48,927 nt of DNA from a virus: the IMG/VR virus record IMGVR_UViG_3300045809_000027, one strand, 5' to 3'. The stretch's first letter is position 1. Each line of letters starts with the position of its first letter. A model generated the notes under the pieces. That model made no database searches and was not told the origin of the DNA. It saw only the letters and a list, made by a program, of their open reading frames with translations. Positions 1,855-14,044 of this stretch are shown one piece after another. The position numbers and the translations under genes were made by a program.

Positions 1855-2511
1855 ATGGACTTTGGATCTCGATTAAAAGAATTACGAGTTTCAAAAAAAC
1901 TTACTCAACAACAATTAGGAGATAAGATTCACGTTTCTAAAGTATCAATTTCTGGTTATGAACGTGGTGAACGTAGTCCTGATAGAGAAACTCTCACTTC
2001 TCTCGCAGATTTTTTTGATGTATCTACAGACTTTCTGTTAGGACGTGAACCTAAAGACATTAATAATTCTGTTGGTATCGGTGGAGTCATTCCAGAGGAC
2101 TATTCAATTCCTATTTTAGGTAGGATTGCAGCTTCATCGCCAGCTGGTTTAGTAAGCGATTACGAAGGAGAAATTTTCATACAGCCCTCTACTATAAAAA
2201 AGTATGGTAGACACGATATTTTCGCTTTACGAGTTTTAGGCGATTCAATGAATCGAATCATTCCTGATGGCGCAATCGCAGTAATCAGAAAAAGTTGCGA
2301 TTGGGAAGATGGAGATATCTGCGCTGTAACAATTAATGGAGATGACGCAACTCTCAAACAAGTTCATAAAACAAACCGTGGAATTAGATTTTCACCATTA
2401 ACTTACTCACGTTTCCACACACCATGGGAATATATTAAAGATGAGGACGATGTTGACGTTATCATCCATGGAGTTTTTTTATATGGCATAATACCAACTG
2501 ATAAAATGTAG
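1855..2511 (+). CDS. CI-like repressor, XRE HTH plus S24 (LexA-like) autopeptidase domain
   Basis: N-terminal KLTQQQLGDKIHVSKVSISGYERGERSP is an HTH. The C-terminal part has LGDSMNRIIPDGAIAVIRK (catalytic Ser) and ATLKQV (Lys). GAGGTG RBS. Confidence 0.9.
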   Translation: MDFGSRLKELRVSKKLTQQQLGDKIHVSKVSISGYERGERSPDRETLTSLADFFDVSTDFLLGREPKDINNSVGIGGVIPEDYSIPILGRIAASSPAGLVSDYEGEIFIQPSTIKKYGRHDIFALRVLGDSMNRIIPDGAIAVIRKSCDWEDGDICAVTINGDDATLKQVHKTNRGIRFSPLTYSRFHTPWEYIKDEDDVDVIIHGVFLYGIIPTDKM

Positions 2512-2526
2512 AATGGAGTGTTAAAT

Positions 2527-3597
2527 ATGGAAATGGAAAAATTTAAAGATGATTTAAAACAATTGGGAAAGCGCGTAATAAAGCTAAAAGACAATATTGG
2601 TACGGAAGAAGCAACTAAAACTTCACTCATTATGCCTTTTTTTGCAGCGTTGGGCTATGATCTATTCGATCCCACTGAATTTGTTCCAGAGTTCACTGCA
2701 GACGTGGGTATTAAAAAAGGTGAAAAAGTCGATTATGCTATTGTTATCGATAGTAAGCCTACTATTCTAATTGAAGCGAAGTCAATTAATGAAAAATTAA
2801 CAAAACATGATTCACAACTTTTTAGATACTTTGGGACTACAGAATCTAAATTCGGGATCTTAACGAATGGTCAAGAATACAAATTTTTTACTGATCTAGA
2901 TGAACCTAATAAAATGGATTTAGCACCCTTCCTTACAATAGATATAACAAATATTAAAGACAACCAAGTTCCTGAGTTAGCTAAGTTTCATAAGGAAAAT
3001 TTTGATGTTGACAAGATTACTAGTTCTGCCGCTGAGCTTAAATACTTGAGTCGTTTAAAGGATTATTTATCGTCTGAGCTTGACAATCCTAATGATGAGT
3101 TTATTAAGTTCCTTCTTGGTGAAATTTATGATGGGATGAAAACAAAACAGATCATTGATAAATTTAAACCAATTATAAAAAAAGGACTCAATCAGTTTAT
3201 CTCTGAAAAGGTAAATGATAAATTAAGCGCTGCATTAAAATCATCAGTCTCAGTAGATGAATTAGATACTAAATCAGAATCAAATACTACAGAAATTGAC
3301 GAACCTGAAGTTATTACAACACCTGAAGAACTAGAGTCATATACTATTGTCAAGGTGGTTTTAAAAGATGTAATTCCTCTTGATCGTTTATTCTATCGTG
3401 ATAATCGCAGTTACTTCAATATTTTATTAGATGATAATATTCGCAAGTGGATTCTAAGAGTACGATTCAATACTAATGGTATGAAGATTGAATTAAATGA
3501 TGAAAAACACTCTGTGTTTGAATTATCTCAACCGATGGATATTAATAATTACGCCAAAGAAATAATCACAATTGTAAATAGATTTAATCAGAAGTAG
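2527..3597 (+). CDS. HsdR_N-like (type I restriction enzyme R N-terminal domain) PD-(D/E)XK protein with unknown C-terminal half
   Basis: EEATKTSLIMPFFAALGYD...GEKVDYAIV...PTILIEAKS...HDSQLFRY...FGILTNGQEYKFF matches the HSDR_N_2 pattern (D...EAK core). GGAG lies 8 nt before the ATG at 2527. Starts 16 nt after the cI stop. Confidence 0.65.
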   Translation: MEMEKFKDDLKQLGKRVIKLKDNIGTEEATKTSLIMPFFAALGYDLFDPTEFVPEFTADVGIKKGEKVDYAIVIDSKPTILIEAKSINEKLTKHDSQLFRYFGTTESKFGILTNGQEYKFFTDLDEPNKMDLAPFLTIDITNIKDNQVPELAKFHKENFDVDKITSSAAELKYLSRLKDYLSSELDNPNDEFIKFLLGEIYDGMKTKQIIDKFKPIIKKGLNQFISEKVNDKLSAALKSSVSVDELDTKSESNTTEIDEPEVITTPEELESYTIVKVVLKDVIPLDRLFYRDNRSYFNILLDDNIRKWILRVRFNTNGMKIELNDEKHSVFELSQPMDINNYAKEIITIVNRFNQK

Positions 3598-3613
3598 AAA
3601 AGAGTGGGTTTTT

Positions 3614-4225
3614 ATGGTTGATTGGAAAGATTTAGGAAAAAGAACCTTCGATGCAACGAAAGATATCACAGAAAAGACAGTCGACTCATTTCAAGAATGG
3701 AAAGATGATCCTGAACGAATTGCTAAAGTTGAAACGAAAAAGGCTACAAAGAAAGCACAGAAAAAAATTGAGAAAGCTGAAAAAATGCAGAAAAAGGAAA
3801 TCAAAAGAGTAAAAAGCGAACCGGATCATGATTATTATTTTACTGAGAAAACATTTGAACCTTTCTCTTCTAAAGGCGTAGTTGAAGAATCGACATATAA
3901 AAAGATTAAAAGAGTAAAGCTTTCGAAAATCACTCAAGAAGAACCTAATAGAATTTCTATAAAACAAGGTAGAAAAAAAATTGATTTTTTATTGGAAAAA
4001 ATTGAATTCTCCGACAAAAAAAATTCAACTGGTGGCGCATTACTCGGTGTTGCAATTGCTGGAACTGCTGGTGCTGTTATTGGTAGCTCGATGAACTCAA
4101 GTAAAGTCTATGCAAACTTATACGTCCGTCCATTAGATGAAAAAGGAGTGCTACATGTAATTCGTTTTTATGCTGACAATAAAGAAGCTGCTCAACTCTT
4201 AAGACTTCAGGCAACGGAGGATTAA
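3614..4225 (+). CDS. Lys-rich protein with glycine-zipper membrane segment, unknown function
   Basis: 203 aa. GGALLGVAIAGTAGAVIGS is a glycine-zipper-like hydrophobic stretch. The stop lies 1 nt before the next ATG. Confidence 0.55.
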   Translation: MVDWKDLGKRTFDATKDITEKTVDSFQEWKDDPERIAKVETKKATKKAQKKIEKAEKMQKKEIKRVKSEPDHDYYFTEKTFEPFSSKGVVEESTYKKIKRVKLSKITQEEPNRISIKQGRKKIDFLLEKIEFSDKKNSTGGALLGVAIAGTAGAVIGSSMNSSKVYANLYVRPLDEKGVLHVIRFYADNKEAAQLLRLQATED

Positions 4226-4226
4226 A

Positions 4227-5165
4227 ATGAAAAAACTAACGATTGTATTCTTACTCTGCTCTACCCTGCTCTTATCAGCATGTTCGGGCGATAAGAAGGC
4301 TGATACGACTGATTCGACTAGAACTAAACTTACAACGAGTAGTTCAACTCAGAAAAAAGAAGCGATAAGTTTGGATTCTATATTGGAAAAGTTCAAGGAT
4401 GATGGATTAACAGTTGATGAGGCTAAATCCATGAACAAGGAAGATTTCGGTATGGCTCCAATGTCTGCTAAAGAAGCGAAGATTTTTGGTATTCAAAAAG
4501 ATGATTCAGGCGACTACATGAATGGCAGAATTTTTCTGTTTGAAAAAGAAAAAGACCTAACTAAAACAAAAGACTATTATGATGAACTTGGTAAAGAGTC
4601 GGCAATGGCCTTCTCTTACACTGCAGCAAATGAAAAGAAATTAGTTCTAATGCAGTTCAATGGAGATTTACCTCAGGATCTAGTTCAAAAATATGCTGAC
4701 TCTGCTGAACTCGAGTTTACTCATTCTAATTTCACTAGTTCACATGATTCAACAAGTAACTCTAGCAAGCAAAGCAACGGTAACTTGACTAACAATACCA
4801 ATACACAATCTTCAGCGTCACAGGGCCTAGGCTATGGTGATCATAATGCGAACATTAGAGACGCAAGGTATCAAGAAGCTATTGAAAAAGGCGCTACTGA
4901 ACAAGAAGCTACTGATTTTGCAAACGGAAGCGAGCCAACATACGTTCCAAAAACTCCTGAACCATCTGCGGACGCACAAGGTTCTAGCGCTCAACAAGAT
5001 GCCGACACCTTATCTCTTACAGACTTTGTAAATAAGTACGGCATGTCACCTGCAGCTTGGAAAGTGCAAAATGGAATGTCAGAGGAAGAAGCGTTAAGAA
5101 GCACCCAAAATCTTACCTCTGGTGAGATGCAACTCGCCTTTTCGAAGTACGGAATTCAGAAGTAA
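4227..5165 (+). CDS. Lipoprotein (candidate superinfection-exclusion factor)
   Basis: Signal peptide MKKLTIVFLLCSTLLLSAC with lipobox LSAC. GGAGGA RBS. Contains S/T/N/Q-rich linkers. Confidence 0.75.
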   Translation: MKKLTIVFLLCSTLLLSACSGDKKADTTDSTRTKLTTSSSTQKKEAISLDSILEKFKDDGLTVDEAKSMNKEDFGMAPMSAKEAKIFGIQKDDSGDYMNGRIFLFEKEKDLTKTKDYYDELGKESAMAFSYTAANEKKLVLMQFNGDLPQDLVQKYADSAELEFTHSNFTSSHDSTSNSSKQSNGNLTNNTNTQSSASQGLGYGDHNANIRDARYQEAIEKGATEQEATDFANGSEPTYVPKTPEPSADAQGSSAQQDADTLSLTDFVNKYGMSPAAWKVQNGMSEEEALRSTQNLTSGEMQLAFSKYGIQK

Positions 5166-5259
5166 TTGATTTCCAATAACTCTGGTAAGTTTGTTTAACT
5201 GGTGGCTACTTCTACCTGCCATAATTGGGAGTTAAAATGATTTTTTTTGGAGGATGCAT

Positions 5260-6498
5260 ATGGCAACTTTGTTAGTGTTAGTAGGATTTTTTGGATTTAT
5301 TTTTGGTGTAGTAAGACTAATTAGAGCGTTTTTCAAGAAAACACCTAAGAAGCCAGAACTTTTAATTATTCTTGGTACTGTTATTGTATTTTTTGCTGGT
5401 GGAACTCTCTTAGAACCATCTGAACAAAAGTCAGCAGAAACAACCATAAGCAGCACACAGCAAAGTAAAACTGGAAACAAATCTTCATCCAGCTCTAGTG
5501 AAACAAAAAAAGAACAAGACAAATCTTCGGATGAAAAGAATAAGCAAAAACAAGCACTTATCTCTTTTAATGATCGTGTGAAGCAAGATAATACTAATCT
5601 TGCAAATATGGAATACAATGGCACGCAAACGATTGAAATTAATGATAATAATCCAACGTTTTCGGAAGATGATTTATCTTTGGCCAATAAAGCTTGGGAA
5701 AAATACGGGGACCTTGATCAACTAAACCGTGCTACTTCTGCCGAAGCTATGCTGAATCAATCATTGATGCCTGCAGCTAAACGTGGAGATATTTCTAATG
5801 TTAAGCCTACTGGCTGGCATAATAAGAAAATTGGTAAAGGATATCTCTATAATCGATCTCATTTGATTGGCTATACCCTTTCTGGTGAAAACGATAATTG
5901 GAAGAATCTGATCACAGGAACAGCACAGTTAAATAATCCAGAGATGCTTCGCTATGAAATGGATATAAAATATTATCTGGAAAAAAGTAAAGATAACTAT
6001 GTACGGTACTCAGTAACTCCTGTATTCCGTGGTGATGAATTACTTGCTCGCGGCGTTCATTTAATGGCTCAATCAATTAAATCTGACGACATTAAATTTA
6101 ATGTTTATATCTTCAATGTACAAGATGATGTAACTTTGAATTATTTAGATGGAACAAGCCAAACTAAAAGCGAGATTCTTGCTGCTCAACAAAAAGAAGA
6201 AGAAAGAAAAAATGCTGAAATTAAAGCTCAACAAGCTGCTGAAGAACAACAGCGAATTGAAGCTCAAAAGCAAGCTGAGGCAGCTCAAAGCGCAGCGAAT
6301 GAACAACAAGCAGCCGCTACTCAAACAAATGGTCCAGAATACGTTGATGCCAACGGGAACGGATTAATCAAAGGTTCTAACAACGGAATATATCACGTTC
6401 CAGGGAGCAGATATTATGATAAAACAACTAATCCAGCAGCTTTGTTTAAAACAGTTGATGAAGCTGAAAGAGCCGGATATCGCGCTCCTAGAAATTAG
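5260..6498 (+). CDS. Membrane-anchored DNA/RNA non-specific endonuclease (EndA / DNA-entry nuclease family)
   Basis: Two N-terminal hydrophobic helices. [31 protein letters not shown] is the nuclease core. Followed by a Q/A/E-rich coiled-coil linker and a C-terminal tail, YHVPGSRYY...[21 protein letters not shown] lies 7 nt before the ATG at 5260. Confidence 0.75.
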
Positions 6499-6503
6499 TA
6501 CTG

Positions 6504-6532
6504 CCTCCCCACCTAACTCTGCAAGTTCGATT
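6504..6532 (+). repeat. Degenerate copy (E1) of the tRNA T-arm-like intergenic element
   Basis: CCTCCCCaCCT-N10-GTTCGATT begins 6 nt after the nuclease stop. It aligns with 6721-6749 (about 22 of 29 identical, same spacing). Confidence 0.7.
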
Positions 6533-6561
6533 AGATCCAAAAAGAAAGAAGGTGAATCGAA

Positions 6562-6714
6562 ATGTCAGATGAAGAAATTAGAAAAGCGGCTCACGATCTA
6601 GCGATCATTTATTTGGAAAAAGTGGACTTAGATCACAAATCTGCCAAGCAAGTAGCTAACTACTACGTGCAAGCGAAAAAAGACATTGAAAAAGTTTTAC
6701 GAGAAAAAGATTAG
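6562..6714 (+). CDS. Small protein, 50 aa, unknown function (absent from the ORF track)
   Basis: GAAGGTG RBS lies 6-7 nt before the ATG at 6562. Translates to MSDEEIRKAAHDLAIIYLEKVDLDHKSAKQVANYYVQAKKDIEKVLREKD, stop TAG at 6712-6714. Predicted helical. Confidence 0.55.
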   Translation: MSDEEIRKAAHDLAIIYLEKVDLDHKSAKQVANYYVQAKKDIEKVLREKD

Positions 6715-6720
6715 CTCTAC

Positions 6721-6762
6721 CCTCCCCGCCTGGCGCCGCCGGTTCGATTCCGGTTCGGGGAA
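6721..6762 (+). repeat. GC-rich tRNA acceptor/T-arm minihelix-like element (E2)
   Basis: TCCCCG (6723-6728) pairs with CGGGGA (6756-6761). Inside it, GCCGG-TTCGATT-CCGGT (6738-6754) is a canonical T-arm. No D or anticodon arm and no CCA. Sits 33 nt upstream of the ATPase start. Confidence 0.75.
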
Positions 6763-6794
6763 TAAAAAATGCAGTGAAGTGAAAGGAAATTTAT

Positions 6795-8561
6795 ATGGCT
6801 TGGAAGAATCCACAACATTATTATATTTCAAATGCAACTTTTGAGAATTTTAGAATCATCAACAATATCAATTTTAAACCAGCGAAACATTTAAATATTT
6901 TAGCGGGAAAAAACGGGACTGCAAAATCAACGATTCTTGGTATGATTGCACAAGGCTTCTCATTTAATCCAAAAATTATTTATGACATATCAAAAACAGA
7001 GTATGAAACTATTAATTCGAAAACAAACCCCACCCCTGCTGAAATAGAAAAGATGCAACTATTCGAGAGTATTACTACTTATAATGAGAAAAATTTTGAA
7101 TCCCGTGCAGATGAACACTTCAAGCTTTCGACAGCAGATGTTAAAAGGAAAAGGCATGCCTCTATTACCATGAAAGCAAATCAGAACAATAAGCCAGACA
7201 TCAATTACTTAATTGAAAGCAATGATTATGCTGATCGTCGAAATCCTAGATTAGTTACCAGAAGAATAAACAATATAGATGAAAGTTCTACGGATACTTC
7301 ATCTTCAAATATTATATTTCCAGTGATATATCTTGGCTTAAAAAGAGTTAATCCGATTGTTCAAGAACGAGGACTAAAGGAAAAAAACTATGGATTACCT
7401 GAATCCGATATTGAAGAAATTTTTGATTTATATCAATCAATTTTATTAAAAAAATACAATTCTAATTTTATTGGAATTAGTAATAATAACGATAAGAGGA
7501 CTGCTGCCTTTATTCCTAAAGAAAGATCCATCGAAATGATTTCCTCTGGAGAGGATAACATTGGACAAATCTTACTGGCATTATATTCATTTAAAAAACT
7601 TAAAAAAAATTATGATGAATATTCTGGTGGAATTTTGTTAATTGATGAAATTGACGTCACTTTATATCCAGCAGCACAAATAAGGTTATTAAAAATACTA
7701 TATAGCAAGGCAAAAGAATTTGGTATCCAAATTTTTTGCACTACACATTCACTTGAACTAATAGAGTACGCAATGGACTTAAAATTAAGTCCAAATAATA
7801 GAAATTTAATTGAGTTGTTTAATCTAAATATCGAACATCGTGATCTAGGCATTATGCCTATCACCAACATAAATACGATAAAAAATCAGTTTTTTGTCGC
7901 AGCCGAAAAGGAAATGAGTAGTGAAAAAATTCCTGTATACTTTGAAGATAAAGAAGCAATCTATGTTTTTAAAGGGCTAGTTACTAAGAAGAAAATTCTG
8001 TCATATTTAAATATTCAAAACAGTTTTTCTCTCGGTTGCACAGAATTATTAAAATTGCACAAATTTAAAATCCCTGAATTCAACGCTAGATCAATTGTCT
8101 GTTTGGATGGAGACAATGTCGCACCAAAAAATATTAAAAATTATATAAATCTACCATCTGAAAATAAATATCCTCCAGAACGATTTGTTTTTGAAATACT
8201 TGACGATAATAATTCTGAGTACTGGGATAATACCAAAAATTATTCCCACGAAATATTTATGAATAATCCACATTACGACATTATCAAACGTATCTTGCGT
8301 GATACATACGCAAATGATGATGGCCCATATAACATTGTCCATTCTGATTATTATAAAAAGAAACCTCGTGAAGTTTGGAAAATGTGGTTTAAACACGAAC
8401 AATTAAATTGGAAAGGCCCTAACAATCCCGTTAAGTTTTGGAAAAGTAAAAACAATCTATCTCCAAGTCTCGAAAAATTCTATGAGGATTTAAAGAAATC
8501 AATCGAATATGTTGCAAATAAAAGTGGTATTGACATTAGCGATATTGAACATCTATTGTAA
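6795..8561 (+). CDS. ABC/AAA_15-21-type ATPase fused to a Toprim/DUF4435-like domain (OLD / AbiL / PARIS-like)
   Basis: Walker A GKNGTAKST (aa 38-46), SSGE signature, Walker B GGILLIDEIDV, H-loop CTTHS. The C-terminal part has VYFED(E384)KEAIYVF and CLD(438)GD(440)N, spaced 54 aa apart like a Toprim E...DxD. The Toprim assignment is inferred, not searched. Confidence 0.65.
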   Translation: MAWKNPQHYYISNATFENFRIINNINFKPAKHLNILAGKNGTAKSTILGMIAQGFSFNPKIIYDISKTEYETINSKTNPTPAEIEKMQLFESITTYNEKNFESRADEHFKLSTADVKRKRHASITMKANQNNKPDINYLIESNDYADRRNPRLVTRRINNIDESSTDTSSSNIIFPVIYLGLKRVNPIVQERGLKEKNYGLPESDIEEIFDLYQSILLKKYNSNFIGISNNNDKRTAAFIPKERSIEMISSGEDNIGQILLALYSFKKLKKNYDEYSGGILLIDEIDVTLYPAAQIRLLKILYSKAKEFGIQIFCTTHSLELIEYAMDLKLSPNNRNLIELFNLNIEHRDLGIMPITNINTIKNQFFVAAEKEMSSEKIPVYFEDKEAIYVFKGLVTKKKILSYLNIQNSFSLGCTELLKLHKFKIPEFNARSIVCLDGDNVAPKNIKNYINLPSENKYPPERFVFEILDDNNSEYWDNTKNYSHEIFMNNPHYDIIKRILRDTYANDDGPYNIVHSDYYKKKPREVWKMWFKHEQLNWKGPNNPVKFWKSKNNLSPSLEKFYEDLKKSIEYVANKSGIDISDIEHLL

Positions 8562-9528: not shown

Positions 9529-9542
9529 GAACATACGTTTGT
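9529..9542. promoter_or_regulatory. LexA (Cheo) box-like motif upstream of int
   Basis: GAACATACGTTTGT fits GAAC-N4-GTTy. It abuts a possible TTTACA-16-TACAAA promoter. The near-identical 14-mer occurs at 11094-11107. Confidence 0.5.
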
Positions 9543-9582: not shown

Positions 9583-10734
9583 ATGAATGGACATGTAAGA
9601 AAAATCGGCAACAAATGGCACTATACCATCGAAATGGCAAAAGTTGGCGGTAAACGTCAGCGTATACAAAAAGGTGGATGGAATACAAAAACTGAGGCAC
9701 AAGAACATCTAAGAGAAGCGCTGAACGAATATAAACGTGGCGGTAAAGTGGATTTAACGGATATTAGTGTTTCTGATTATTTTGATTACTGGTTTGAAAA
9801 TTATGTTGAGAAGAAACTTAAGTATAATACGCAAAAAAACTATAAAAATGTAATTGATAAATACGTGAAGCCAGAAATTGGGAAATACCTACTTCAATCA
9901 ATAGGCCCTGCGAAATTGCAGGAGCTTGTAAATAAACTACCTGAAGGATTTAATAAACAGCTCTCAAAACATTCTGTAGAGATTATCTTCACTGTCCTAA
10001 AAGGTGCATTTCGAAGAGCAGTCTTCCCTTATCAACTAATTAATAGCAATCCAATGGACTATGTCGAAATGCCGGCATTCCCTTCTAAACCAAAACAGTC
10101 AAGAGATGATATGAAAATTATAACAATGGATCAGTACCTTAAAATTTTAGATAACACCCCTATTTCGGATTCTTTTCACATTCCTCTTGTCATTGCTTTC
10201 CACACAGGGTTGCGTCGCGGCGAAGTTTGTGGGATGACCTGGGACAATGTGTCATTTGAAGATCAGACTTTAACTATCACTAAAATTATGTTACAAGACA
10301 AGAATGGGATACAAATAGGAACACCCAAAACGCAGGCTAGTTATCGAACCATCAGTATTGATGACATGCTGCTTGAAGAGTTAAAAAGCCATAAAAAAAG
10401 ACAATTAGAAAACAGAATGAGATATGGAAAGTTTTATTATGAAAGTTCATTTGTATGTACTAAAGAAAACGGACAGCCTGTCACACCAAATTCAATAAAA
10501 TGGTCAGCAAGTAAAATCAAGAAGAATTTAGGTATTAACTTTAACTTCCATTCTTTGAGACACACGCATGCAACAATGCTCTTAGAGGATGGAGTAAAAC
10601 CGAAAATTGTTCAAGAAAGACTCGGCCATTCGAGGATTTCTACTACTATGGATAAATATGTACATGTTACTAAGAAAATGAGAACTGAAGCCGTTGATAT
10701 TTTCGCCGAACGTCTTCGCCGTTCAATGAACTAA
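9583..10734 (+). CDS. int: Tyrosine site-specific integrase
   Basis: N-terminal SAM-like domain. The catalytic region has GLRRGEVCGMTW, HSLRHTHATMLL and LGHSRISTTMDKYVHV (R..HxxR..Y). Confidence 0.93.
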   Translation: MNGHVRKIGNKWHYTIEMAKVGGKRQRIQKGGWNTKTEAQEHLREALNEYKRGGKVDLTDISVSDYFDYWFENYVEKKLKYNTQKNYKNVIDKYVKPEIGKYLLQSIGPAKLQELVNKLPEGFNKQLSKHSVEIIFTVLKGAFRRAVFPYQLINSNPMDYVEMPAFPSKPKQSRDDMKIITMDQYLKILDNTPISDSFHIPLVIAFHTGLRRGEVCGMTWDNVSFEDQTLTITKIMLQDKNGIQIGTPKTQASYRTISIDDMLLEELKSHKKRQLENRMRYGKFYYESSFVCTKENGQPVTPNSIKWSASKIKKNLGINFNFHSLRHTHATMLLEDGVKPKIVQERLGHSRISTTMDKYVHVTKKMRTEAVDIFAERLRRSMN

Positions 10735-10800: not shown

Positions 10801-11093
10801 ATGAAAATCACAATCATTCATAGCGGATATTTTCAAACAAACCCTTATTTCTTCTTGGGTTCATCCTCATCCATTTTCAGAACGGCCATGAATGCCTCTT
10901 ATCTTATTTCCTGATTCACAAAGGTTTAAGAGTTCCTCAAGAGGTTTAATAATACCTAGACAAATATACTTCATCAGGTAACAAATATCAAATTCAAGCT
11001 CTAACGATATTGGTGATTACTCATGCAGTTTTTAGCTTTGGGCGGCGATATGACGAACAATCAAATTTAATAAATTGTTCCCCTTCACAACCG

Positions 11094-11117
11094 GAACATA
11101 TGTTTGTATGATATAAA
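11094..11117 (+). promoter_or_regulatory. LexA-box-like motif plus extended -10 promoter of the 11141-12352 cassette
   Basis: GAACATATGTTTGT (11094-11107) lies immediately upstream of TGATATAAA (11109-11117). RBS GGGGTGA precedes the ATG at 11141. Confidence 0.5.
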
Positions 11118-11140
11118 TATCTTATTCTAGGGGTGATCGT

Positions 11141-11395
11141 ATGAAATCGTTAAATGGTATTGTAAGTAGCGTAAAAATTCTTAAGTATTCTGAACGTCCC
11201 CTCGTCTATTTTAAGCTTGATGATACTAGCTGTTTGATTGCTGGTCACTCGTTGAATTTTTTTGCAGATGTAGAGGATGGAATGCGGATCGCTGTTGCTG
11301 GCGAGTACAATAGTAGGAAACAGTTCATTGTGCGGAAATATAGTGTGATCGGAGAAACTAGAATCATGTTAGAGTTAAATCGATTGTCAGTTTAA
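11141..11395 (+). CDS. Small protein, 84 aa, unknown (possibly beta-rich/OB-like)
   Basis: ORF with RBS and its own promoter. No motif recognised. Confidence 0.55.
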   Translation: MKSLNGIVSSVKILKYSERPLVYFKLDDTSCLIAGHSLNFFADVEDGMRIAVAGEYNSRKQFIVRKYSVIGETRIMLELNRLSV

Positions 11396-11449
11396 TTCTA
11401 AATTGCTATTGTTCTGATTATTTTTATAAAGTATCATATAGAAAGAAAG

Positions 11450-12352
11450 GTGGTAAAAGTGTTGGCAAAGTACGAATTTTCTGTAAGATATGCAGGAGAA
11501 GCTTTGGTTGATGGAAGGATTCCTATCAGAGACTTGGCTCCTTCTTTGTTAGCTCTTTCTGAAGCCTTTCAAGAAATACAACAGATCACTCATCCATATC
11601 AACAACCTGTTTCACTAGATATTAAGGCTTCTGAAAAAGGATCGTTTATTGTTGATTTAATATTAGCAAATGGAAACGATTTGTTGTCGAGTGCTATTGA
11701 TTTACTAAATGGAAATGAATCAGAAGCTTTAAGAAATTTAATTGAACTGGCTACTGGTTTCACAGCAGCAGTTATTTTCATTACCAAAGTAGGTAAAAAG
11801 AAAATAAAAAGAAAAAAAGAATTGCCTGAAGGAGAAGTAAAGATTACTTTGGACGATGAAACTTCAATTACTGTTTCCAAAGATGTTTTTGAAGCATATA
11901 GAAATGTTGAATTTAGAAAAACGACTAAGGAATTTGTTCGGCCGTTAGAATCAGAAGGTATTGAAGCAATTGAATTTTCAACTGAGAAAAATGCTTCTGT
12001 GTCAATATCTAAGCAAGATGTCTCAGCTTTTGATGTTCCAGAGATTGAAGATAAAGAATTCCCTTCAACTGAAAGTACTGTATATTTGCAAATTATCAAT
12101 ATTTCATTTGCGAATGAAAAATGGAAACTGACTGATGGTAACAAACCTTTTTGGGCAAAAATTGAAGATGAAGAATTTCTCACTTCTATTGAAAATAATC
12201 AACAACAATTCGGTGCTAGTGATGCTCTAAAAGTTATACTGGAGACACAGCAAAAGTTTACTGACAATGGTTTGAAAACGGAGTATTCTGTAAAAAAAGT
12301 AATCGAACACATTAAAGGGCCCAAACAATTAAAATTGGATTTTGAAGAATAA
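11450..12352 (+). CDS. 300-aa protein, unknown; central hydrophobic segment followed by a poly-Lys stretch
   Basis: GTG start preceded by AAAGAAAGG. LIELATGFTAAVIFITKVGKKKIKRKK suggests a membrane anchor or amphipathic hinge. Followed by a strong terminator. Confidence 0.6.
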   Translation: MVKVLAKYEFSVRYAGEALVDGRIPIRDLAPSLLALSEAFQEIQQITHPYQQPVSLDIKASEKGSFIVDLILANGNDLLSSAIDLLNGNESEALRNLIELATGFTAAVIFITKVGKKKIKRKKELPEGEVKITLDDETSITVSKDVFEAYRNVEFRKTTKEFVRPLESEGIEAIEFSTEKNASVSISKQDVSAFDVPEIEDKEFPSTESTVYLQIINISFANEKWKLTDGNKPFWAKIEDEEFLTSIENNQQQFGASDALKVILETQQKFTDNGLKTEYSVKKVIEHIKGPKQLKLDFEE

Positions 12353-12366
12353 TCATTCTTTTTGCG

Positions 12367-12396
12367 TACCTTCTCTAAAAGAGGAGGTATTTTTTA
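12367..12396 (+). terminator. Intrinsic terminator of the att-proximal cassette
   Basis: TACCTTCTC-TAAAA-GAGGAGGTA (9-bp stem with one G-U), then TTTTTT. Confidence 0.85.
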
Positions 12397-12403
12397 TGTA
12401 CCC

Positions 12404-12480
12404 TGTAGGGCCTTGTAGGACTCGAACCCGCATCTTCCGATATGAACCGGAGTATTCTACCAATTGAACTAGGAATACTC
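12404..12480 (-). pseudogene. Chimeric tRNA-like fragment; candidate attP core
   Basis: The minus strand reads a D-arm (GTTC-AATTGGTA-GAAT), a CAT-containing anticodon-like loop with a defective stem, then GCGGG-TTCGAGT-CCTAC-AAGGCCC. The 5' acceptor (GTATTCC) cannot pair with the 3' acceptor (AAGGCCC), and the T-stem has a mismatch. Confidence 0.55.
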
Positions 12481-12508
12481 TTAAATAAGGATTATTATTT
12501 TTAAAACG

Positions 12509-12517
12509 TGTTATAAT
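12509..12517 (+). promoter_or_regulatory. Extended -10 promoter (TGTTATAAT)
   Basis: Perfect TGnTATAAT lying 10 nt upstream of the hairpin at 12527. Confidence 0.55.
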
Positions 12518-12523
12518 ACAGAA

Positions 12524-12588
12524 TAGAACGTCAGATCTTCCCCACAGTCCACTTCCCCAAGTAACTGTATCTGACGTTCCCTTTTTTT
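12524..12588 (+). ncRNA. Candidate ~65-nt small RNA with two C-rich (CUUCCCC) unpaired motifs
   Basis: Stem AACGTCAGAT (12527-12536) pairs with ATCTGACGTT (12569-12578). Inner stem ACAGT/ACTGT. CTTCCCC appears at 12537-12543 (bulge) and 12552-12558 (apical loop). Followed by CCC and T7 (12582-12588). Confidence 0.5.
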
Positions 12589-12733
12589 ATGGGCGAGTGA
12601 CTTCCCATTAAAATTAACTTACCCATAAAACGTTTACTTTGCAAATGATACACTCATGACAAAGTGATACACTACACAAAGAAACAACCAGCCCGCACAC
12701 GACTGGTTGCCGATCAAGATGAAACTTAGTTAT

Positions 12734-12828: not shown

Positions 12829-13836
12829 TCACTTAATATCGTGATACCAACGTGTTTCGTAGAAGTCTTGATGACCTCCACTTACATCACCTTTAGCGTC
12901 ATTTGTAGCACGTGTCATCACAATGACTGACTTACCACTAAAATGCTTAGCATTGAAATTCACATCATAACCGACATTCCCAGTCGTCCGATAAGCAGCA
13001 TTCACATCTGGTCTTGCTACTACAGGTGCTTTCTGGCGTGCCAATTCTTTGCCAGTTGTCCGATCAATAATAAATACATATTGATACTTGTAATTAGCGA
13101 TATGCCACCCACGCGCCTTCAAGGTGTTCCCGATTCTCCCCCATTGATCAACATGAGCATGGTTTCCTTTGCCATCGTTCATTACAGAATATCCTGATCC
13201 TGCGGTAGTTGGATCTACAGGTTTGCTTGGAGTCGGTGCAGGTTTGTTCTCGTTTGATTCAAAACCATACTTCACATCATGTGCAAATTGCGCTTGTGAG
13301 ACACCGTGACTTGCTAAGTAGCCATACGGGTCCGTATGATCGCCCCACCAATTCGTAGAAATGTATTGGTGACTGATGACCCCTTTGCCGCCTACTGGAC
13401 TGTCTACAGTAAGAGGAATATTAAACCGTTTCGCACTGTCACGAATTAATTCAATGTAAACTTTATAGTTCTGTTTAAAGAGCGCTGGATTGGGCGTTGC
13501 TTGCAATTCAATTTGTACTGGCGAATTCGCATTGGCATAAGAGCCGCCTCCGTATTGCACATAGCCGGGTTCACCAACTTGGTAGACAATACCGTCACCA
13601 ACAATATAGCTAGTGTAGGCATTCATCCAATTGCGCTTCATAAAGGTAGCTTCGTTACGTCCTGTTGCGCTAGGATTTGCAGTATCGTGCGCCACAATAT
13701 AATTTGGATTTGCTCTAATTGGACTGCCTTCATTCGCCCCTAAATTGAACTCGTTATTGATCGTGTAAGCAAACCCATTAATAGGCAATAAAAAAAGAGC
13801 CAGTAAAAGGCTCAGTAACGTAATTTTCTTTTTCAT
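12829..13836 (-). CDS. Endolysin: N-acetylmuramoyl-L-alanine amidase (Amidase_2/PGRP-like) with N-terminal Sec signal peptide and C-terminal wall-binding domain
   Basis: AGGAGG RBS before the ATG at 13836. MKKKITLLSLLLALFLLPINGFA is a signal peptide. NYIVAHDTANPSATGRNEATFM and VQIELQ are amidase_2-like motifs. Confidence 0.8.
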   Translation of the reverse strand: MKKKITLLSLLLALFLLPINGFAYTINNEFNLGANEGSPIRANPNYIVAHDTANPSATGRNEATFMKRNWMNAYTSYIVGDGIVYQVGEPGYVQYGGGSYANANSPVQIELQATPNPALFKQNYKVYIELIRDSAKRFNIPLTVDSPVGGKGVISHQYISTNWWGDHTDPYGYLASHGVSQAQFAHDVKYGFESNENKPAPTPSKPVDPTTAGSGYSVMNDGKGNHAHVDQWGRIGNTLKARGWHIANYKYQYVFIIDRTTGKELARQKAPVVARPDVNAAYRTTGNVGYDVNFNAKHFSGKSVIVMTRATNDAKGDVSGGHQDFYETRWYHDIK

Positions 13837-13846
13837 GTGATTCCTC

Positions 13847-14044
13847 CTATTTTTTCGAATTGTATGCTGAGACACCTGTAACTACTCCTAAAAAAGTAGC
13901 TACAGCATTAATTGTTAGCACAGTCATATCCGCGCCACCCCAACCGTATGCCTTTCCAAGTGTGCCAACTAAAACAGATGCAGCTGGCAACACTGTGAGA
14001 ACCGCCCATTTAATAATTTGGTAATACTTGTCCGGTAAAATCAT
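13847..14044 (-). CDS. Holin (phage_holin_1-like, two TM segments)
   Basis: MILPDKYYQIIKWAVLTVLPAASVLVGTLGKAYGWGGADMTVLTINAVATFLGVVTGVSAYNSKK. Internal Met of track ORF 13847..14122. Lies directly upstream of the lysin. Confidence 0.75.
   Translation of the reverse strand: MILPDKYYQIIKWAVLTVLPAASVLVGTLGKAYGWGGADMTVLTINAVATFLGVVTGVSAYNSKK

Follow-up and report, generated by a model that had tools for sequence, protein, structure and literature searches.

A two-gene cassette (positions 11141-12352) was analyzed in IMGVR_UViG_3300045809_000027, a stretch of 48,927 nucleotides of viral DNA that is called the window below. The cassette lies between the integrase gene int and the gene for an Amidase_2 endolysin (the lysin), is transcribed against the late genes and consists of an 84-aa and a 300-aa open reading frame (ORF). 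A preliminary description of the window had regarded both genes as unrecognizable and had thought it plausible that they form a toxin/antitoxin-like or abortive infection (Abi) pair. Comparison with related loci leads to another reading, which we hold with a probability of roughly 0.55: between attP and its lysis genes, a temperate phage of Enterococcus (avium group) would carry two accessory modules that are independent of each other and together form a mosaic, and the larger gene, a member of the LAPAL family, would be a moron for which a role in defense is plausible. The supposed pair would then be a chance mosaic junction of two catalogued but uncharacterized families.

The positions of both ORFs were confirmed (Table 1). 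The 84-aa ORF starts with ATG behind the Shine-Dalgarno sequence GGGGTGA, and the 300-aa ORF follows after 54 nt when it is counted from a GTG. The true start of the larger gene is probably the TTG at 11462, because this start agrees with the N-termini of its family and with the NCBI call for a near-identical E. raffinosus ortholog; the protein would then comprise 296 aa with the N-terminus MAKYEF, and the gap between the genes would be 66 nt. Both ORFs are genuine genes under purifying selection. For the larger gene a dN/dS of 0.037 (dS 0.86) was obtained against a 93%-identical ortholog, and the 84-aa gene gave values of 0.13-0.20 in three of four comparisons and of 0.49 in the closest pair. 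A word-indexed search returned 83 clusters of homologs for the larger protein and at least 362 for the smaller one. An antisense ORF of 194 aa (11599-12183) was taken as spurious in view of the strong purifying selection on the plus-strand frame.

The 300-aa protein is a LAPAL family protein

The 300-aa protein proved to be recognizable by profile comparison, which identifies it as a full-length member of the catalogued family LAPAL_fam / PDC-S42 / PHROG 3243. It matched NCBIfam LAPAL_fam (NF053583, "LAPAL motif-containing putative phage structural protein") with 242.3 bits (cutoff 60; E = 6.9e-72; residues 10-289 on profile positions 1-292 of 292), PADLOC PDC-S42 (PDLC05015) with E = 4.4e-76 (residues 7-298 on positions 3-300 of 302) and PHROG 3243 over its full length with E = 1.8e-72. 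A Pfam search with the protein gave no match; the family as a whole is weakly related to Pfam DUF7946. The motif DLAPSLLAL occupies residues 28-36; in an alignment of 44 sequences L33 never varies, and L29, A30 and P31 are each conserved in 90% or more of them. Of 1.84 billion cluster representatives searched with the profile, 5197 proteins (50%-identity clusters) matched at E <= 1e-3, and 1480 of these had E <= 1e-30; the best 150 of the 5197 matches are mostly about 300 aa long and aligned nearly end to end. No mention of PDC-S42, the LAPAL motif, phrog_3243 or DUF7946 was found in the papers searched, and PDC systems are described as candidates only.

An AlphaFold2 (AF2) model of the LAPAL protein (pLDDT 82, pTM 0.64) predicts a ferredoxin-like N-terminal domain (residues 6-125, beta-alpha-beta-beta-alpha-beta) that carries the DLAPSLLAL motif, a middle alpha/beta region (residues 129-200) and a C-terminal oligonucleotide/oligosaccharide-binding (OB) fold (residues 207-288), a five-stranded barrel with a helix between strands 3 and 4. 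When the whole chain was compared with the PDB by Foldseek, no match was obtained (best TM-score 0.14). Locally, the C-terminal domain matched OB folds (Rim1, Rfa1-N, RPA) with probabilities of 0.99-1.0 and E >= 0.01, and weaker matches to ferredoxin-like and ACT folds were seen. A search of BFVD with the model returned only four uncharacterized phage proteins, and a profile search of the sequences of solved structures returned nothing.

In the 44-sequence alignment K224, W225, D240, F254 and D258 are invariant and H287 is nearly so, and all of these residues belong to the predicted OB domain. K224, W225, F234 and H287 suggest a candidate nucleic-acid-binding face. The preliminary description had recognized no catalytic motif in the protein, and no catalytic constellation was evident in the family alignment either.

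The same description had pointed to a hydrophobic segment followed by KKKIKRKK, which is present at residues 97-123, and had taken the protein to be membrane-associated. The second half of this proposal fares less well. The segment fits the second helix of the N-terminal unit in the model, its uncharged run is 15 residues long (97-111), and the approximate Hessa insertion energy of the helix has a median of +4.3 kcal/mol and falls below +2 in only 4 of the 44 members. Conservation along the helix is sequence-specific (A93 in 43, N96 in 37, F104 in 30 and G106 in 32 of 44 sequences). On the grounds of the short uncharged run, the unfavorable insertion energy and this conservation, a transmembrane anchor was rejected, without certainty; the segment is probably a buried core helix, and the modeled LAPAL protein would be soluble rather than membrane-bound.

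The 84-aa protein is a predicted OB-fold protein of LexA-box operons

The 84-aa protein is predicted to be a single OB fold (b1-b2-b3-a-b4-b5) with a C-terminal helix (AF2, pLDDT 82.6). Nearly all of its Foldseek matches in the PDB are OB-fold proteins (LEF-3, RecO, PolD DP1, Rim1, PriB; probability up to 1.0, E >= 0.011). A match to Pfam tRNA_anti_2 is weak (E = 0.15), and a profile search of the sequences of solved structures returned chance matches only. The depositors of phage EG-TP1 independently annotated a structural match to a single-stranded DNA (ssDNA)-binding protein for the homolog in that phage. The two predicted OB folds, that of the 84-aa protein and that of the LAPAL C-terminal domain, were also considered as paralogs, which was rejected (hhalign probability 0.7%).

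The OB-gene family is abundant in prophages of the Enterococcus avium group and was also found in E. gallinarum phage EG-TP1, in Latilactobacillus curvatus phages, on one E. faecium plasmid and, in a non-phage setting without int, on megaplasmids of E. gilvus and E. raffinosus (L070 and L071; compared loci are cited by such numbers). In both megaplasmids (5760-6261) a perfect Cheo box, CGAACAAATGTTCG, precedes a DUF5960 gene and the OB gene, which have 14 nt in common, and the locus is syntenic and lies among universal stress protein genes. This DUF5960-OB arrangement is possibly the host form from which the module descends.

The neighbors of the OB gene within 4 kb were surveyed in 67 IMG/VR contigs. 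A gp31-like 88-aa gene was present in 48 of them, a LexA box with a TATAAT-like hexamer upstream in 39, a YolD-like gene in 24, DUF5960 in six and a Y-family polymerase in four, and a LAPAL gene was found in a single contig, which is this phage. Many of the contigs have less than 600 nt of sequence in front of the OB gene, and the counts of upstream features are lower bounds. The YolD-like proteins resemble one another across three lineages (blastp 1e-10 to 1e-16) and have the motif DRGMxKWxGFFLSEHT in common; one of them matches Pfam YolD weakly and below the cutoff (E = 0.002). A prophage whose integrase is identical to that of the window (L064) carries in the same slot behind attP (4747-7152) a LexA box, a 180-aa gene, a Y-family DNA polymerase gene (IMS), a YolD-like gene and DUF5960, an operon that resembles a phage-borne translesion-synthesis-type module. 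By comparison with such loci, the window keeps only the promoter and the OB gene of the LexA-box operon. In Latilactobacillus phage TMW 1.1365 P3 (L062) a 408-aa gene with a putAbiC domain (2149-3375; E = 1.9e-6) stands beside an OB/YolD-like pair between amidase and int and appears to be a further defense-type cargo in the amidase-int slot.

A LexA-type operator lies in the promoter of the OB gene

A promoter of the extended -10 type had been attributed to the cassette. A promoter of its own was retrieved by consensus scan (Table 1); the designation "extended -10" fits only the overlapping sequence TGaTATAAA, and homologous promoters favor the -10 hexamer that abuts the box, here TATGAT. The box is the SOS-like element of the preliminary description, GGAACATATGTTTG, and it proved to be conserved in diverged homologous promoters. 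It fits the refined Cheo consensus, CGAACRNRYGTTYC, and overlaps the promoter. Exact matches to its core, GAACRNRYGTTY, occur twice in the window, against an expectation of 0.4, and two or more were found in 7 of 100 shuffles. In all homologs compared, the OB gene or its operon is preceded by the layout TTTACA-like -35 / [C/A]GAACnnnnGTT[C/T]G / TATAAT with diverged flanks. The box abuts TATAAT in L010, L011, L017, L020, L061, L062, L063, L064, L070 and L071, and its occurrence extends over phage, plasmid and megaplasmid loci of two genera. An operator that is kept while its flanks diverge is good comparative evidence and suggests LexA control. The box belongs, on this comparison, to the family of the small gene and not to the LAPAL family.

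The other exact core match in the window is AAAAAGAACATACGTTTG, which follows a terminator hairpin and lies about 45 nt 5' of the int ATG. Other Enterococcus prophages, Listeria phage vB_LmoS_188 and one Latilactobacillus phage have kept the same arrangement in front of int, which suggests that integrase expression is SOS-controlled as well.

With LexA-type boxes at the 84-aa promoter and in front of int as the sole exact matches in the window, and with the int-proximal box kept in phages of Enterococcus, Listeria and Latilactobacillus, both OB-fold proteins might be thought to act in DNA metabolism at induction. They would be induced by LexA cleavage, bind ssDNA or a recombination intermediate, and tune RecA-dependent induction, protect the excised genome or aid Int as a directionality factor. 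The last of these roles would suit a window in which none of 10 small early ORFs is a Pfam-recognizable excisionase, but the prophages that carry 84-aa homologs with 73-85% identity use at least three different integration sites, which argues against a site-specific directionality factor, and the OB gene also occurs in the megaplasmid loci that have no int. The predicted OB folds of both proteins and the YolD-like and Y-family polymerase genes that are linked to the OB gene are consistent with a role in DNA metabolism; the self-cleavage domain of the S24-type repressor, however, makes an extra SOS relay unnecessary, and LAPAL genes in other loci are preceded by their own promoter-like hexamers instead of a LexA box. 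We regard this explanation as unlikely, though it deserves consideration. More narrowly, an excisionase role of the 84-aa protein is unlikely for a family with members at several att sites and also outside phages, and a Tum-like antirepressor is unnecessary given the S24 domain of CI.

The cassette adjoins attP

Integrated relatives allowed the attachment site to be mapped. At one end of the integrated copies the 84-aa gene comes after the host YitT gene (L006-L009), and at the other end int borders on the 3' end of host lepA (L065, L067, L069). Three-way alignments of the window (attP) with L006 (attL, YitT side) and L067 (attR, int then lepA) yielded a common core of 53 nt, which host lepA carries unchanged at its 3' end. 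In attL, host-type bases at 10851 and 10857 put the crossover to the right of the latter position. The core is shared by the integrated copies, and according to the alignments the window therefore shows the phage form of the site, attP; about 190 nt separate this core from the start of the cassette on the side of the lysin. Such a location at the far prophage end is the classical place of a moron, and the mapping bears out the preliminary description, which had placed the cassette in a moron position next to the att region. A tRNA-like stretch at about 12.4 kb was also considered as a functional att site, which was rejected because the integrated copies put attP at the mapped core.

A nucleotide search of the region against phages gave as its sole match a 150-nt stretch of the att region in Listeria fragments. 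The int-attP-OB junction was also observed inside a 209,938-bp JGI contig (L005/L066), so that either the prophage is present in tandem copies or the assembly ran through an excised circle.

The two genes probably meet at a mosaic junction

The OB gene and the LAPAL gene mostly occur apart. The OB gene stands without LAPAL in 66 of the 67 viral contigs and likewise in L011-L022, L061-L063 and L070-L071. LAPAL genes without an upstream OB partner were seen in Listeria, Lactobacillus, Bifidobacterium, Lactococcus, Nocardioides and other loci, and an OB gene upstream of LAPAL in an operon arrangement was found in none of at least 20 loci examined outside this Enterococcus lineage. Where the two genes do recur together, in L010, the OB gene is 92% and the LAPAL gene 99% identical to that of the window. 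These unequal identities indicate a mosaic junction.

The junction can be placed by comparison with a sister prophage that occupies the same att site and carries the OB gene only (L011). Relative to this prophage, the window contains an insertion at ~11396-12520 that starts from the 3' end of the OB gene and comprises the LAPAL gene, its terminator and the tRNA-like stretch. Homology with L011 resumes at a second long hairpin, which marks the right-hand end of the insertion. This hairpin is common to the sister prophages, where it stands directly 3' of the 84-aa gene and serves as its terminator when LAPAL is not inserted; the insertion lies upstream of it, and the window therefore has two tandem terminators. 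The first of them is the strong intrinsic terminator that had been noted before, and it is kept after the LAPAL ortholog in L010 and in Enterococcus sp. AZ128 (L023). Folding of the 54-nt spacer between the ORFs revealed no hairpin or terminator. Two candidate weak internal promoters of the LAPAL gene are consensus matches only (Table 1), and the TTGTTx-17-TATCAT form is retained in L023.

The origin of the inserted module is suggested by the L023 locus, in which a 93%-identical intact LAPAL gene lies among host genes as part of a prophage remnant. On its 5' side only the last ~12 codons of the OB gene are left, and on its 3' side the same terminator is followed by a genuine tRNA-Met gene. The corresponding stretch of the window resembles the 3' part of a tRNA-Met gene, with the region of the CAT anticodon, and ARAGORN called no tRNA there. 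Judged by these similarities, it is probably the fossil att core of the element that donated the LAPAL module. The simplest reading is that the block of OB 3' end, LAPAL, terminator and att (tRNA-Met) once formed the end of a prophage at tRNA-Met. The block would have entered this phage by recombination within the conserved OB gene, with the left junction inside the OB 3' end. The module accordingly looks like a moron in that it is inserted and has a terminator of its own; its own promoter is here a weak consensus match, and clear hexamers are seen in homologs.

These observations bear directly on the toxin/antitoxin-like or two-component Abi pair, a small partner and a membrane-associated effector under SOS control, that the preliminary description had considered plausible. 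The two genes are indeed adjacent and co-directional, with a shared upstream promoter and no terminator between them, and LexA-controlled toxin systems exist. The recurrence of the pair in L010 and the remnant of the OB 3' end before LAPAL in L023 further indicate that the junction predates this phage. Nevertheless, the co-occurrence is limited to one lineage, the OB gene has other genes as its natural operon partners, and LAPAL manages without an upstream OB operon partner in the 20 or more other loci. In E. diestrammenae (L028) the genes are convergent, with an OB gene (57% identical) at 7372-7130 and a LAPAL gene at 6001-6881 that is split in two frames at ~6303 and is probably a pseudogene. 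The unequal identities in L010 point the same way, as do the gap of 54-66 nt, at which translational coupling was not found, the searches of Pfam and PADLOC, which returned no toxin or antitoxin domain for either protein, and the hydrophobic helix, which is unlikely to be transmembrane. A functional pair is highly improbable in our estimation.

LAPAL genes stand alone at the ends of prophages

LAPAL genes are rare in phage records: four distinct LAPAL-encoding phages, all temperate, were found among 50,697 records. Their LAPAL genes adjoin int or sit between endolysin and int. The gene is next to int in Listeria phage vB_LmoS_188 (ORF27) and in Bifidobacterium phages PMBT6 and Bbif-1; in Lactobacillus phage A2 (ORF19) it follows the endolysin gene on the same strand and has an annotated terminator. 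A profile search of genome contigs with a narrower LAPAL alignment returned only 8 loci. The gene adjoins int in L. kalixensis, is the last prophage gene, 3' of the amidase, in E. casseliflavus (L036), and is the last gene of a ~7-kb int-HTH-pRha element without visible structural genes in Lactococcus lactis. In Nocardioides it lies in an island together with ArdA, an McrA-like HNH protein, MTaX1, Dcm and Vsr. On IMG/VR prophage contigs it is usually found within ~3 kb of the contig end. At the ends of prophages and satellites of Firmicutes and Actinobacteria, either orientation is seen.

A survey of neighbors for signs of defense islands had been suggested. Among 89 neighboring ORFs of 20 loci, integrases (seven) and endolysins (seven; four Amidase_2 and three GH25) dominate, followed by holins, HTH repressors and then host housekeeping genes; only the Nocardioides locus is island-like. 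No neighbor recurs across the 20 or more loci. The upstream regions of LAPAL genes elsewhere have no LexA box and mostly contain consensus-like hexamers, for example TTGACA-17-TATAAT in L026. This context fits an autonomously expressed, stand-alone accessory gene of prophage ends.

The family description of NF053583 raises the question whether LAPAL is instead a virion structural or lysis-accessory protein and not an accessory expressed in lysogeny. The gene does follow the endolysin gene on the same strand in phage A2, in E. casseliflavus and at several IMG/VR loci. It adjoins int, however, and is opposed to or detached from the late operon in L. kalixensis, in the phages of Listeria and Bifidobacterium and in the window itself. 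It also has its own terminator here and promoter-like hexamers of its own elsewhere, is found in the Lactococcus element and in the Nocardioides island, has remained intact in the prophage remnant beside tRNA-Met, and is confined to those four temperate phages among the phage records. The context thus appears to argue against a virion or lysis component despite the NCBIfam name, and we consider this explanation very unlikely.

As the moron slot at prophage ends houses many kinds of conversion genes, LAPAL could also be a different lysogenic-conversion or counter-defense factor that would, for example, block a system of the host or of a rival element and use its OB fold as a protein-binding module. 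The Nocardioides homolog adjoins the anti-restriction gene ardA, no catalytic motif is apparent in the family, and its invariant residues are mostly structural. Direct support for such a role was not found, and PADLOC places the family with defense candidates, not with anti-defense. Retention in a decayed prophage remnant under strong purifying selection suggests a benefit to the host instead. We therefore judge a counter-defense or other conversion role to be improbable.

Surrounding genes

The features of the cassette and its surroundings are compiled in Table 1. The genes between the S24-type repressor and position 6498 form a cargo on the way to int. Farther along the lysogeny module, a GajA/PtuA/AriA-like ATPase precedes a D12 adenine methyltransferase, and the two are likely a defense pair. 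The slot upstream of int differs among prophages that have the same integrase, with a ParA-like gene in L064 and DUF5067 in L069.

Table 1. Positions of the cassette and of selected features in the 48,927-nucleotide window
Feature	Position	Strand	Remarks
S24-type repressor (CI)	1855-2511		S24 self-cleavage domain
HSDR_N-domain protein	2518-3597		Repressor-int cargo (2518-6498)
203-aa gene	3614-4225		No Pfam match; repressor-int cargo
312-aa protein	4227-5165		Lipoprotein-like N-terminus; repressor-int cargo
Endonuclea_NS_2 nuclease	5254-6498		Repressor-int cargo
ATPase, 588 aa	6795-8561		AAA_15/AAA_21; lysogeny module
D12 adenine methyltransferase	8608-9492		Matches PADLOC PD-Lambda-5_B, E = 2e-111
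LexA-type box 5' of int	9529-9540		Exact core match
int	9583-10734	+	Upstream of cassette; ATG at 9583
attP common core	10846-10898		53 nt
Promoter of 84-aa gene	11084-11112	+	-35 TTCACA 11084-11089, 17-nt spacer, -10 TATGAT 11107-11112
Candidate LexA (Cheo)-type operator	11093-11106		Inside promoter spacer, between -35 and -10
Alternative extended -10, TGaTATAAA	11109-11117		Overlaps -10 TATGAT
84-aa ORF (OB gene)	11141-11395	+	ATG start
Candidate weak internal promoter of LAPAL gene	11403-11430	+	TTGCTA-16-TATAAA
Candidate weak internal promoter of LAPAL gene	11409-11437	+	TTGTTC-17-TATCAT
300-aa ORF (LAPAL gene)	11450-12352	+	Counted from GTG
Intrinsic terminator of LAPAL module	12366-12397	+	11-bp stem 12366-12390 and U-run; -13.9 kcal/mol, z = -4.2
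Probable fossil 3' part of tRNA-Met gene	12400-12475	-	Rfam tRNA 20.5 bits, below gathering score
Second long hairpin	12526-12590	+	AACGTCAGAT...ATCTGACGTT and T-run; -21.7 kcal/mol, z = -3.1
Lysin (Amidase_2 endolysin)	12829-13875	-	Downstream of cassette

A model for the expression and role of the two modules

According to the mosaic reading that we prefer, module A (~11084-11395) would consist of the LexA-operator promoter and the 84-aa OB gene, and module B (~11396-12520) would be the inserted moron with the LAPAL gene, its terminator and the tRNA-Met att fossil. In the lysogen, host LexA would be bound at the operator in the promoter spacer and repress the OB gene; DNA damage would release LexA, and the OB protein would be made. 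Because there is no terminator between the two genes, LAPAL would be made by read-through from the SOS-controlled promoter, perhaps with additional weak constitutive expression from one of the internal promoter candidates. By association, the OB protein may be a nucleic-acid-binding accessory of an SOS or damage-tolerance-type module. LAPAL has no recognizable catalytic site and would for this reason act as a soluble, cytoplasmic, non-enzymatic binder of nucleic acid or protein through its C-terminal OB fold. Its position and autonomy suggest that it most likely benefits the lysogen, with exclusion of, or defense against, other phages as the leading candidate; a defense role is plausible and would parallel that of PdpSau and AbiP, OB-containing but non-homologous prophage proteins of the same slot.

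Several observations weigh against this model. As stated, no mention of the LAPAL motif or of PDC-S42 was found in the papers searched; the NCBI family name speaks of a structural protein; and defense neighbors are rare around LAPAL genes, with the Nocardioides locus as the only one that looks like a defense island. Given its weak own promoter, LAPAL may here be mainly SOS-induced, which would be odd for a constitutive defense gene. The OB assignments are derived from AF2 models and Foldseek matches (E >= 0.01), and the hydrophobic helix, with a borderline Kyte-Doolittle value of 1.6 over 19 residues, resembles transmembrane segments in some actinobacterial members. Only association connects the OB gene with translesion synthesis, and a Y-family polymerase accompanies it in just 4 of the 67 contigs.

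A bolder extension of the mosaic reading is possible, although we hold it only tentatively and think it rather doubtful. LAPAL/PDC-S42 would be a very widespread single-gene anti-phage system carried by temperate phages and satellites (at least 5000 clusters at 50% identity) that has no enzymatic domain, acts stoichiometrically and senses phage ssDNA or a phage protein with its C-terminal OB fold, and the 84-aa protein would be a new OB component of LexA-controlled phage modules with YolD-like proteins and Y-family polymerases.

Both families merit attention on their own account. LAPAL is a large and uniform family at the ends of prophages and satellites in Firmicutes and Actinobacteria that bears contradictory labels in two curated resources, and tractable members are available in Lactobacillus phage A2 (ORF19), Listeria phage vB_LmoS_188 (ORF27) and the chromosomal copy of L. 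lactis. The LexA-box operon of enterococcal and Latilactobacillus phages (YolD-like, gp31-like or DUF5960, OB and sometimes a Y-family polymerase) appears to be undescribed, and this module is relevant to damage tolerance and mutagenesis encoded by prophages. In addition, the locus provides an example of a moron that apparently travels with a piece of its previous att site.

Comparison with known systems

With LAPAL_fam, PDC-S42 and PHROG 3243 the protein of the window shares the length of about 300 aa, the single architecture, the DLAPSLLAL motif and the stand-alone setting, and no difference was found at the level of the sequence. The labels of the databases disagree, however: NCBIfam lists a "putative phage structural protein", whereas PADLOC lists a single-gene defense candidate.

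PdpSau of S. aureus prophages (phage 53 ORF016) causes abortive infection against lytic phages, and PdpSau and lactococcal AbiP are prophage accessory genes whose products have an OB-like region and an N-terminal transmembrane anchor (PMC10127798). LAPAL resembles them in being a single prophage gene located between endolysin and int/att, with a product of about 280-300 aa that contains an OB-fold-like region. In contrast, it has no N-terminal hydrophobic segment, and its hydrophobic helix is internal and probably buried. Homology of LAPAL and PdpSau was considered and rejected (hhalign of the family profile against PdpSau, probability 0.2).

LexA-regulated operons with YolD-like and Y-family polymerase genes are represented in Firmicutes by B. 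subtilis yqjX-yqjW and by yolD-uvrX of SPbeta. Shared with these are the Cheo box over the promoter and the prophage location, together with YolD-like genes in the operons of 84-aa homologs in three lineages and a Y-family polymerase in some. The window differs in having only the promoter and the OB gene, and the YolD assignment of the partner genes elsewhere is weak. We know of no OB-fold member that has been described for such operons.

LexA-controlled genes at prophage ends include tum of coliphage 186 and the Gifsy antirepressors. The 84-aa gene is likewise a small gene at a prophage end under direct control by host LexA, which is here predicted; unlike in those phages, the repressor of the window has its own S24 self-cleavage domain, the predicted fold of the 84-aa protein is an OB fold, and support for an antirepressor was not obtained. 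The LAPAL module, finally, resembles classical morons in being inserted relative to L011, in having its own terminator, in adjoining att and in being opposed to the late genes. It differs from them in that its own promoter is weak here and the gene is apparently wired behind the SOS promoter of its neighbor.

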